Assembly: GCA_016208305.1 (NCBI GenBank)
Contig: JACQYI010000026.1
Span: forward strand, 1 to 22,019
Direction of reading: 5' to 3'
Length of the DNA stretch: 22,019 nucleotides
From: Oscillatoriophycideae cyanobacterium NC_groundwater_1537_Pr4_S-0.65um_50_18
GTDB lineage: Bacteria > Cyanobacteriota > Cyanobacteriia > Elainellales > Elainellaceae
The position numbers and the translations under genes are program-made. The notes under the pieces were generated by a model. The model was not told where the DNA came from. It was given only the letters and a program-made list of their open reading frames with translations, and searched no databases. Positions 16,691 through 18,510 of this stretch are shown here, one piece after another. Within the stretch, counting starts at the first letter, position 1. Each line of letters begins with the position of its first letter.

Positions 16691-18277
16691 TCAAAGTTCT
16701 CCTGCTGCAATCATTTGGATCAACCGAGGGGTTCCTGGATCAAACCCGGCAATATCCCACGACATTGAATCTTGTGGATCAACCAGCGAGACATTGTAGG
16801 GAGCCAGGGTTACATAAACAGCTTTTGCCCCAGGATTCACCTTACGGCGGTACTCGGCTAACGCTTGGCTCGGATGCTTGCGCCCTGCCCAGCTTTCGCA
16901 GTCTGTCCAGAAGCAAAACACGTCTGCCTTGAACTTGTGCTTGATTGCCCAGTCATACGCCACCGACGCATCCGTTCCCCCAAAGTTTTGGTTGCTGGCT
17001 TTGGCGATCGCACTCCCAAACGAATCCCGCGCTGTAATTTTCAGGTCACGGATATCAGTGGCAAATCCGCGAATAACATAGTGCTGTTCGGCTTTTGCCG
17101 TTGCCAGTGCCATCGTGGTGGCAATCTCACAGCAGGTTAACCCGATCGAACTCACGCTGTAATAGGACATAGAACCGGAAACATCGATCGCGTGCAGAAA
17201 CACCTTACCCGTTGGCTGCATCACCTCAAAGGAGAGTTCCAGAGCTTGCTCCAGAATATCCACGATGCGAGGAACAGGTTGCCAGGTTTTCTGGCTGCGT
17301 CCCAACTGCCCACCGGATTGATAAGTCTTGAGGGCTTTCAAAACATCGATCGGGTGAATACGCCCTTTCCGCAGATGCTCCGCACTGTTGAGGACTTTCG
17401 CAACCCGCTTCAGGTTGTCACGGTTGTCAGCCGTCAACACGCCCAGTTCGGTTAATGAACCTAAGTTTCGCAGCAACGCTCCGATCGGCATATCCTTGAA
17501 CAGCAGTTGCCAGGCTCGCTTGCGCATCTTGCCCACGGGGGCTGCCATTTCATGCGTTAACCGACCTTTGGCGATCGCCTCATGAGTCTTTTCAGGATTG
17601 CGCTTCAGCCACTCGTACCACCAGATTTGAGCCAGAGCATCCGAGGGGATTTCCTGAGGCAGGTTCTCCCAGCCTTGAATTACCCACTGAAATAGCTGGT
17701 TGTGATCTTCTGTGAGCGGTTTAACGTGGAATAGTCGCAATGCATCCCGGTGAGAGAAGCCCTGGCGCTGCTGATATTTCAGCAGTTGATATGCCAATCC
17801 TTTCACATCCGGATTTGATAACCAGGACTTACCCGTTTCATGAATAATCTTGCCAAATCCGCGCATGGCTTTGGTATAGCTCAACCATTCGTAGAAATAG
17901 CTTCCCGTTCTCACAACTTGAGGAAAGATCGACTGAAAAGCGTGCTTTGCTTCGACTGTCTCACCCATCGATAGCAACACTAATGCCAATAATGGCGCAC
18001 TGTTATTGATTGCCCGTCCATTGCTGGCATAGAGAATTTCTGAGGCAACCCGATCGGGGTTGAGGGCGATCGCCTGTTTCAAGACTTTGACAAATTCACC
18101 CGTCAACTCCTGCTTGCCTGCGTAATAAGCCCCCTGAGCCGTTCCAATCAACAGACAGCGACGCAACACACTCCAGATGTCGGCTTTGAACATCCAACCA
18201 CCGGAACGCCCTTGAGTTAATTCGGAGTTCGGAGTTCGGAATTCGGAATTGGGAGTGGTAAAGAATTTGTAACTCAT
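16691..18277 (-). CDS. rsr: Ro60-related protein Rsr (TROVE domain + C-terminal vWA domain with a MIDAS motif)
   Basis: 528 aa. The N-terminal region DIWSVLRRCLLIGTAQGAYYAGKQELTGE aligns with Ro60 ...[23 protein letters not shown]. A TROVE helical-repeat body follows. The vWA motif KVFLHAIDVSGSM (DxSGS) sits near residue 370. The start is either ATG 18277 (MSYKFF...) or ATG 18193 (MFKADIW...). The 28 extra residues are encoded by the heptamer array. Confidence 0.88.
   Translation of the reverse strand: MSYKFFTTPNSEFRTPNSELTQGRSGGWMFKADIWSVLRRCLLIGTAQGAYYAGKQELTGEFVKVLKQAIALNPDRVASEILYASNGRAINNSAPLLALVLLSMGETVEAKHAFQSIFPQVVRTGSYFYEWLSYTKAMRGFGKIIHETGKSWLSNPDVKGLAYQLLKYQQRQGFSHRDALRLFHVKPLTEDHNQLFQWVIQGWENLPQEIPSDALAQIWWYEWLKRNPEKTHEAIAKGRLTHEMAAPVGKMRKRAWQLLFKDMPIGALLRNLGSLTELGVLTADNRDNLKRVAKVLNSAEHLRKGRIHPIDVLKALKTYQSGGQLGRSQKTWQPVPRIVDILEQALELSFEVMQPTGKVFLHAIDVSGSMSYYSVSSIGLTCCEIATTMALATAKAEQHYVIRGFATDIRDLKITARDSFGSAIAKASNQNFGGTDASVAYDWAIKHKFKADVFCFWTDCESWAGRKHPSQALAEYRRKVNPGAKAVYVTLAPYNVSLVDPQDSMSWDIAGFDPGTPRLIQMIAAGEL
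18219..18253. repeat. Heptanucleotide tandem array (AATTCGG/AGTTCGG) x5, STRR-like
   Basis: aattcgg agttcgg agttcgg aattcgg aattggg. It lies inside or at the 5' end of rsr and encodes the duplicated peptide TPNSEFR/TPNSEL if ATG 18277 is used. Confidence 0.8.
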
Positions 18278-18301
18278 GATCTGGTTTCCACAATTGTTGT
18301 C

Positions 18302-18336
18302 ACTAATTCCGAATTCCGAATTACCAATTCCGAATT
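18302..18336. repeat. Heptanucleotide tandem array in inverted orientation (CCGAATT) x5
   Basis: actaatt ccgaatt ccgaatt accaatt ccgaatt. This is the reverse complement of the flanking arrays, so it can pair with either of them. Confidence 0.8.
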
Positions 18337-18468
18337 ATTAGTTGGCAGGGTGAGAGTTGCACCCACATCACCCGCTGGGAAGGCGATAACCCTCATTCGT
18401 CGTCCCTTTCGGGCAAGGTGTGAACAAGGATGTTTTAGGCGTTCTACTGTTAAACTACCTGCCGGTGA

Positions 18469-18510
18469 AATTCGGAATTCGGAGTTCGGAATTAGGGATT
18501 GGGAATTCTG
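18469..18510. repeat. Heptanucleotide tandem array (AATTCGG-type) x6
   Basis: aattcgg aattcgg agttcgg aattagg gattggg aattctg. It lies just upstream of the four-helix-bundle gene start. Confidence 0.8.

Follow-up and report, generated by a model that had tools for sequence, protein, structure and literature searches.

The locus described here raises the question of whether the repeat-rich DNA around the start of a cyanobacterial rsr gene encodes a Y RNA and, if so, whether the repeats belong to that RNA. The stretch analysed, called the window below, comprises 22,019 nucleotides (positions 1 to 22,019 of the forward strand of contig JACQYI010000026.1, assembly GCA_016208305.1) from Oscillatoriophycideae cyanobacterium NC_groundwater_1537_Pr4_S-0.65um_50_18 of the Elainellaceae, and it carries rsr, the gene of a Ro60 orthologue, on the minus strand. 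An earlier note on this DNA had described three arrays of the heptamer AATTCGG or its reverse complement CCGAATT around the rsr start, and had proposed that they pair into long stems around a structured core, the whole being a candidate Y RNA to which no strand was given. Such an RNA is expected beside rsr, because bacterial Y RNAs are known partners of Ro60. Our analysis supports this proposal for the core, which has a conserved fold and a Ro60-type motif and is read on the minus strand, but not for the arrays. We consider it likely that the core encodes, on the rsr strand, a conserved Y RNA of the YrlA type with the shape of a tRNA, and that the AATTCGG arrays are lineage-specific repeats of the short tandemly repeated repetitive (STRR) type that lie outside the conserved RNA.

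The first line of evidence is the conservation of the core. A blastn comparison with 80 cyanobacterial rsr loci matched nearly every locus on the rsr strand, with the 3' end of the match typically 31-35 nt ahead of the rsr ATG and with more diverged tandem copies farther upstream. The window unit is orthologous to the rsr-proximal unit of these cyanobacteria, and its 3' end at 18343 sits 65 nt upstream of the rsr ATG at 18277. Its core shares 95-98% identity with that of the loci L001-L004 and L007. With Pantanalinema (L001) the identity is 97.6%, even though the neighbouring rsr genes have diverged by 0.32 per synonymous site. When 83 cyanobacterial loci were searched with R1, a covariance model derived from 30 orthologues, 311 matches were obtained, every one of them on the rsr strand. 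Homologues of the unit lie upstream of rsr in 81 of the 83 loci, in numbers from one to eight per locus and most often three, and 55 loci carry a unit just downstream of rsr on the same strand. The downstream units of the Nostocales (L014-L079) are more diverged and lie about 45 nt past the rsr stop, as at 5676-5793 in L016. Within the 22-kb window R1 gives a single match, at 18338-18468 on the minus strand (133 bits, E 2e-28); run with its filters off, it detects no further unit in the window, including the 700-nt gap at 18864-19562 and the region downstream of rsr. The class of rsr-proximal units, to which that of the window belongs, has no encoded CCA and continues into the rsr leader, while 94 of 175 non-proximal units have C+ACCA directly at their 3' side. 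Judged by this comparison of sequences, the core at 18343-18464 is a conserved non-coding RNA gene on the rsr strand.

The second line of evidence is the fold. Comparative folding of the orthologous loci, one of the checks suggested earlier, yields a conserved tRNA cloverleaf with compensatory changes. Read on the rsr strand, its consensus combines an acceptor stem of 7 bp with a D stem of 4 bp and a T stem of 5 bp, the last with a loop of 7 nt. Several helices that the earlier note had picked out, all of them confirmed in the sequence, find their place in this fold: the closing helix (ggcagg 18344-18349 with cctgcc 18458-18463) is the acceptor stem, the gggtg..caccc hairpin is the T arm, and the ccc-tttc-ggg hairpin is the tip of the arm that bears the Ro60 motif. 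In the 30 orthologues the cloverleaf pairing holds in 97.8% of cells, against 40-53% in controls with slid partners, and 17 of 34 pairs show compensatory changes; on 150 units the figures are 98.4% and 21 of 34. The pair U8:A14 is present in 150 of 150 units, the Levitt pair 15:48 is G:C in 124 and A:U in 22, and a GG in the D loop co-occurs with UU in the T loop (133 units), its loss going with UG (13 units, including the clade of the window). The conserved G.U pairs are compatible with the rsr strand only. A 226-nt segment folds better than its shuffles on both strands, with z = -6.0 on the plus strand and z = -4.0 on the minus strand. In the anticodon-like arm, the short hairpin at 18373-18385, stacked on a 2-bp helix CC/GG, mimics a 5-bp anticodon stem with a 7-nt loop; compensatory changes occur at both the 3-bp hairpin and the 2-bp helix, and the hairpin loop has 7 nt in 140 of 150 units. 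Between these two short helices is placed a long side arm capped by GCCN-tetraloop-NGGC. For this apical hairpin RNAalifold had at first given the register CCUU/AAGG, which was dropped because the compensatory C-G to U-A changes favour the GCCN-tetraloop-NGGC form. Across the wider family the Y RNA terminates in a tRNA-type acceptor stem of 7-8 bp, in which G-1 and C73 make the eighth pair. As a separate observation, three units in alignment A3 have a 26-nt sequence (UACCCUACGGGAAGCAAGCUACAAUU) in place of the 7-nt T loop.

We assign the core to the YrlA class because a tRNA fold with tertiary pairs is combined with a side-arm sequence, GACGAAUG, that fits GNCGAAN0-1G, the proposed Rsr contact in YrlA (Chen et al. 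2014, PMC4201824). This sequence falls in the most conserved block of the unit, and the motifs follow each other as in YrlA: GACGAAUG, UUAU, V hairpin, T arm, acceptor, D arm. Like YrlA genes, the window unit is on the strand of rsr and no more than about 4 kb away from it, and it has T- and D-arm-like hairpins together with tRNA tertiary pairs, including a covarying Levitt pair. The permuted layout of YrlA is not what we see, however, since the window holds a single unit and acceptor strands appear to pair within units: they do so at 7 of 7 positions in 148 of 150 units, and across neighbouring units in 4 of 58. A solitary unit with the order acceptor, D, arm, T, acceptor has no way of adopting the permuted form. 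The complementary acceptor strands present in each unit, often with an ACCA tail, and its closed Ro60 arm make the unit look like an unpermuted tRNA. As far as sequence can tell, we favour a layout of the cyanobacterial units that is unpermuted, ends in the acceptor stem and holds the Ro60 arm as a closed hairpin.

Several results speak against this assignment and must be set beside it. At the gathering threshold no Rfam model, including Y_RNA (RF00019), vault (RF00006) and YrlA, matches anywhere in the window, so that the model searches proposed in the earlier note brought nothing for the interval. Rfam YrlA (RF02553, gathering score 69 bits) gives no match in 18100-18700 even at E <= 10, a setting at which only spurious matches to miRNA hairpins appear there, due to the arrays. 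The Rfam tRNA model has no match in the window either, and ARAGORN, applied to the window and to 12 loci, calls neither a tRNA nor a tmRNA. In the Nostoc locus L017 the YrlA model reaches 24.2 and 21.1 bits, below threshold and only when it spans two neighbouring units, and the Rfam tRNA model scores 48 bits on one Nostoc unit with a 71-nt insert. Tandem Nostoc units would also permit a permuted YrlA across two units with one mismatch, and published cyanobacterial models assume permutation. The T loop UGCAACU and the D loop AACAGUA of the window clade deviate from the tRNA/YrlA consensus, and the first acceptor pair of the window unit is a C.A mismatch. Moreover, we infer the processing and Rsr binding of cyanobacterial units only from their homologues. 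In spite of these points, the family is best described as a variant within the YrlA-class Y RNAs, and it is one that current Rfam models do not detect.

Table 1. Features of the rsr locus and its surroundings (window coordinates).
Feature	Position	Strand	Basis or remark
tRNA-like Y RNA unit (YrlA class), bounded by the two acceptor strands	18343-18464	-	probable class; covariance model R1, homology, covariation
Acceptor stem, 5' strand CGGCAGG	18458-18464	-	first pair C.A mismatch in the window, U-A in relatives
Acceptor stem, 3' strand CCUGCCA	18343-18349	-	ACUAAU comes next, hence no encoded CCA
D arm GUUU-AACAGUA-GAAC	18441-18455	-	4 of 4 pairs supported, 3 with compensatory changes; U8:A14 invariant, 15:48 covaries
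Long side arm AUCCUUGUUC / GAAUGAGGGU, apical hairpin GCCC-GAAA-GGGA	18389-18431	-	near-invariant sequence; presumed Ro60-binding module
GACGAAUG	18394-18401	-	fits YrlA motif GNCGAAN0-1G (definition: PMC4201824)
Short hairpin CGC-CUUCCCA-GCG, counterpart of the V arm of YrlA	18373-18385	-	compensatory changes
T arm GUGGG-UGCAACU-CUCAC	18350-18366	-	5 pairs, 4 with compensatory changes; loop of 7 nt in 147 of 150 units
rsr (Ro60 orthologue, TROVE and Ro60 vWA domains)	16691-18277	-	domain matches, orthologue comparison; start ATG 18277
Array 1	18219-18253		in rsr coding sequence, codons 9-20, PNSEFRTPNSEL
Array 2, (CCGAATT)n on the plus strand	18302-18336		between Y unit and rsr start; complementary to arrays 1 and 3
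Array 3, (AATTCGG)n on the plus strand	18469-18510		5' of Y unit on the rsr strand; 33 nt upstream of IVP gene (+); synteny breakpoint
IVP gene (PF05635), four-helix '23S rRNA intervening sequence protein'	18543-18863	+	divergent from Y unit
MVP-like gene, 576-aa protein	19563-21293	+	weak MVP_shoulder, Band_7 and Vault_3 matches; about 1.3 kb from rsr

Instead of being released as a free RNA, the conserved unit might work in cis, forming a structured leader on the rsr mRNA such as an autoregulatory Rsr-binding site. The nearly fixed distance of the rsr-proximal unit from the ATG in most loci is consistent with such a role. So is the fact that this unit, unlike the upstream ones, has no encoded ACCA tail and continues into CCUUU or the Shine-Dalgarno region, and no terminator-like site was seen between unit and rsr. 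A scan for promoter and terminator consensus sequences was uninformative on the transcription start because its hits showed no excess over shuffles. However, up to eight tandem units and another one downstream of rsr fit poorly as leaders, and the homologous YrlA RNAs are stable, trans-acting and bound by Rsr (PMC4201824). Cis and trans roles are not mutually exclusive. We regard a leader without a free RNA as unlikely and retain the YrlA-type Y RNA as our interpretation of the core.

The arrays need a separate account. That all three exist where they had been reported is confirmed by Tandem Repeats Finder, which gives period-7 arrays of 4.6-5.7 copies at 18221-18256, 18305-18336 and 18469-18508, and by the count of the 14-mer AATTCGGAATTCGG, of which the 22-kb window contains 13 copies with up to two mismatches where 0.16 would be expected, each of them inside one of the three arrays. 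Their ability to pair is equally real: an inverted-repeat search finds arrays 1 and 2 complementary over 33 nt (88%) and arrays 2 and 3 over 32 nt (84%). On the rsr strand the 3:2 duplex has an energy of -33.3 kcal/mol and the 2:1 duplex one of -38.2 kcal/mol; on the plus strand both are stronger (-41.1 and -49.0 kcal/mol), because variants in the arrays (A to G) give G.U pairs there and A.C mismatches on the rsr strand. The idea that the arrays make the long terminal stem of the Y RNA nevertheless fails, because relatives whose core is 95-98% identical have no arrays, and none was found in any of the closest relatives (L001-L004, L006-L009, L082). The repeat itself is generic, since three tandem copies of AATTCGG occur in at least 120 unrelated metagenome contigs (median GC 59%), none of which carries a Y unit. 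The arrays also have the features of STRRs, namely tandem 7-nt units in few copies that vary between strains and are dispersed. For the arrays, the second option of the earlier note, STRR-type repeats, was thus the right one.

The surroundings of Y units in other loci show that such arrays are not peculiar to the window. Heptamer arrays of many differing sequences occupy the spacers between units, of which 40 of 134 fold as array hairpins at z < -3, and 30 of 248 units, from several lineages and with differing heptamers, have complementary flanks at the same cut-off. Period-7 arrays make up 17.3% of the non-coding bases within 60 nt of Y units and 2.7% elsewhere in the same loci, an estimate that rests on a crude mask of open reading frames and on many related, phylogenetically non-independent Nostoc loci. 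This roughly 6- to 6.5-fold enrichment is a difficulty for the view that the arrays are neutral, and so is the presence of related arrays at the same positions in three further loci. L018 has (AATTCCG)2.6 in the spacer between units A and B; L081 has (TACGAAT)4 at the same rsr codons and a decayed inverse array after the unit, with 145 nt of upstream sequence covered; and L010 has inverted (AATTCGT)/(AATTACG) arrays between Y unit and rsr. In the window, array 3 marks the point at which synteny with unit A and rtcB is lost. To our knowledge, heptamer arrays of this type have no known function. We believe that they are best read as STRR-type repeats that build up in spacers and promote rearrangement, which would explain the loss of unit A and rtcB, the presence of the IVP module and the in-frame replacement within rsr.

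A functional view of the arrays holds that pairing of arrays 3 and 2 prolongs the acceptor stem to a duplex of some 32 bp, which serves as the long stem of the Y RNA or as a stalk for RNase III processing, and that the alternative 2:1 pairing encloses the rsr start and would so couple folding or processing of the Y RNA to rsr translation or mRNA decay. Besides the enrichment and the array hairpins beside units in other loci, two properties of the window agree with it: its flank-to-flank duplex is the strongest among 248 units, and the minimum free energy fold of a 326-nt segment pairs array 2 with array 1, leaving the rsr start codon in a loop. The sequence, copy number and orientation of the heptamers are all unconserved, however, and RNase P, given what is established about its substrates, should be impeded by a duplex that prolongs the acceptor stem. 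The absence of the arrays from close relatives and their weaker pairing on the rsr strand also speak against a function, which we think quite improbable. That the arrays serve in processing, as stems, or switch translation is conceivable but unsupported. More ambitiously, cyanobacterial Y RNAs might be unpermuted and tRNA-shaped, with an 8-bp acceptor, an encoded ACCA and the Ro60 arm in the anticodon stem, and be made from up to eight tandem genes whose spacer heptamer hairpins act as processing or insulating stems, with the mutually exclusive 3:2 and 2:1 pairings of the window as a switch linking Y RNA maturation to rsr translation; this combined proposal we hold to be improbable and put forward as speculation.

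The arrays could also be unrelated to the RNA in another sense, by belonging to a small mobile or recombining cassette with the IVP gene and being relevant, if at all, on the plus strand. In that case insertion and rearrangement through the arrays would have left them around the Y unit incidentally. The IVP gene and array 3 form a module that is also found beside rsr in L010. There, an IVP homologue with 88.7% identity (3607-3924, minus strand) adjoins the Y unit and rsr and is bracketed by the inverted arrays; the window and L010 genes have a homologous leader and an upstream heptamer array in common, that of L010 being AATTCGT in the same orientation, with an inverted array on the other side. 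This suggests that heptamer arrays allow the IVP gene to move or recombine as a small cassette, and the loss of synteny at array 3 and the more stable plus-strand duplexes agree with the view that the arrays belong to it. As an explanation of the arrays themselves, however, the cassette is improbable, because L018 has its spacer array with no IVP gene there, L081, with 145 nt of upstream sequence covered, carries arrays both in the rsr N-terminus and behind the unit, and most unit-flanking arrays in Nostoc have no IVP gene nearby.

The weakest alternative takes the core for an ordinary tRNA gene, or a tRNA pseudogene, containing an insertion, or else for a tRNA-derived mobile element resembling a miniature inverted-repeat transposable element or a short interspersed element with arrays as termini. 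It is suggested by the cloverleaf, by the one Nostoc paralogue scored as a tRNA and by the inverted arrays on either side, but is highly improbable. All 311 copies are intergenic beside rsr on its strand, and neither the roughly 740 kb of flanks searched nor the 22-kb window yielded a copy elsewhere. The unit is strongly constrained; its conservation is highest in the inserted arm, where the Ro60 motif is located, while the 'anticodon' triplet varies, and no tRNA is called by ARAGORN. The dispersed copies expected of a transposable element with terminal inverted repeats and target-site duplications were not found either: the units stand only beside rsr, and the AATTCGG contigs are without a unit.

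Array 1 also bears on where rsr begins. The earlier note had allowed that the array adds a TPNSEFR-TPNSEL duplication to the protein or that the true start is ATG 18193. Neither holds. Cyanobacterial Rsr orthologues are 75-93% identical, and all of them begin with MxYKFF followed by the conserved xxxxxxTPQxQPIPGREAEM.QGRSGGWMF. Because this N-terminus is conserved, the rsr start is, on the comparison of orthologues, ATG 18277; ATG 18193 was rejected as the start because orthologues conserve the 28 residues ahead of it at the protein level. Located in frame within rsr, array 1 adds no duplication but puts 14 residues (TTPNSEFRTPNSEL) in place of about 20 conserved ones (xxxxxxTPQxQPIPGREAEM). 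Apart from array 1 the gene is under strong purifying selection, with a pN/pS of about 0.06 against four close relatives. The conserved rsr start ATGAATTACAAATT (18257-18277 in the window) resembles two heptamer copies of the AATTACG type, and in L010 the heptamer array at 3983-4020 extends through the rsr start codon and encodes MNYEFF; the rsr start region, with its heptamer-like sequence, may seed or attract such arrays. In L082 (6001-7698), the closest relative of the window's Rsr, the database protein P0001 has a false N-terminal extension of 31 residues (MRVIAFQAGDVGAT...), which is a translated Y RNA unit, and therefore gene callers read through such units.

Among the neighbouring genes, rtcB, encoding an RNA ligase, lies directly upstream of two Y units and rsr on the same strand in L002, L003, L004, L009, L023 and L082 (in L082 at 4433-5614), a linkage that is lost in the window. 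A protein resembling MVP near the gene of a Ro60/TROVE protein recalls the components of the eukaryotic vault. A 'bacterial vault' link between this neighbour and rsr was considered but is not supported; in 83 other loci the 4 kb on either side of rsr contain no MVP homologue, so that the adjacency looks incidental. Between the IVP and MVP-like genes lies a 25-bp hairpin at 19402-19461 (96% complementary, 10-nt loop) that is not matched by the Y-unit model. The hydrogenase maturation genes hypF, hypD and hypE occupy 1316-6299 on the plus strand, and a fragment of a DDE_3 transposase is found at 21481-21789 on the minus strand, near the end of the window.

From these results a mechanism may be sketched. 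The Y RNA unit is most likely transcribed together with rsr, and tRNA-type processing, by RNase P at the 5' side and a nuclease at the 3' side, would then free the Y RNA. The RNA would be bound by Rsr through its side arm and would offer its tRNA-like module to other factors that recognise tRNA. We infer co-transcription, processing and Rsr binding by analogy with YrlA of Salmonella and Mycobacterium, which has been shown to bind Rsr and to present a tRNA-like module. The three arrays would have been gained in this lineage at one site each, namely the spacer on the 5' side of the unit, the rsr leader and the rsr coding sequence, and on a transcript they would form long duplexes, either 3:2 around the unit or 2:1 around the rsr start.

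The implications go beyond this contig. A large cyanobacterial family, with 311 copies in 83 loci, has been missed by the Rfam YrlA model. Its apparently unpermuted, tRNA-like units with a Ro60 arm in the anticodon stem, many of them encoding ACCA, offer a concrete intermediate for the proposal that Y RNAs arose from tRNA, with proteobacterial YrlA as a circular permutation of this form. RNase P processing and CCA ends are predicted for the cyanobacterial RNAs. Furthermore, arrays that are enriched several-fold beside the units and mark points of rearrangement, including the replacement within rsr, provide a defined locus at which the question of RNA processing versus recombination can be addressed.

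Compared with known systems, the unit shares with YrlA (RF02553; PMC4201824) its place beside rsr on the same strand, the occurrence of several paralogues per locus, and the succession of the GNCGAAN0-1G motif, YUAY, V hairpin, T arm, acceptor-like stem and D arm with a covarying Levitt pair. An rtcB gene adjoins the locus in close relatives of the window, which is comparable to the Salmonella operon rsr-yrlBA-rtcBA. In contrast, Salmonella YrlA, as seen in its crystal structure (bioRxiv 10.1101/312249), is circularly permuted, with a closed acceptor loop and ends in the Ro60 stem, whereas the window unit looks unpermuted. Published models describe cyanobacterial YrlA as permuted with a 'much longer acceptor stem', and this stem may correspond to the heptamer-array hairpins seen in spacers here. 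Yrn1 of Deinococcus radiodurans and the metazoan Y RNAs (RF00019) are likewise partners of Ro60, and Yrn1 also lies beside rsr and has a T-arm-like hairpin and its 5' and 3' ends on the acceptor side. In these RNAs, however, the Ro60 site is in the long terminal stem, while the window unit has its motif in an internal side arm; the sole long terminal stem here is made by the arrays and is absent in relatives, and the window unit has neither a match to the Rfam Y_RNA or vault models nor a conserved terminal Ro60 stem. With tRNA the unit has in common the cloverleaf, the 7-bp acceptor, the 4-bp D stem, the 5-bp T stem with its 7-nt loop, U8:A14, 15:48 and a 7-nt anticodon-like loop with U at position 2. 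It differs in the arm of about 55 nt inserted into the 5' strand of the anticodon stem, so that no intact anticodon arm is found and tRNA models do not call the window unit, in the lack of a conserved anticodon and in its occurrence only beside rsr.

The arrays, for their part, resemble cyanobacterial STRRs in having few tandem 7-nt copies, in varying between strains, in lying in spacers and leaders, in being able to form hairpins and in being tolerated in or beside structured RNA genes. STRRs that form hairpins are found between hup/hox genes (PMC2670836), and according to Vioque (1997), as cited in PMC2858038, STRRs also occur inside the RNase P RNA gene of heterocyst-forming cyanobacteria. 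AATTCGG is not among the named STRR families and occurs outside cyanobacteria too. In contrast to known STRRs, one array of the window stands in frame in a conserved protein-coding segment, and arrays of this kind are enriched around Y RNA units.

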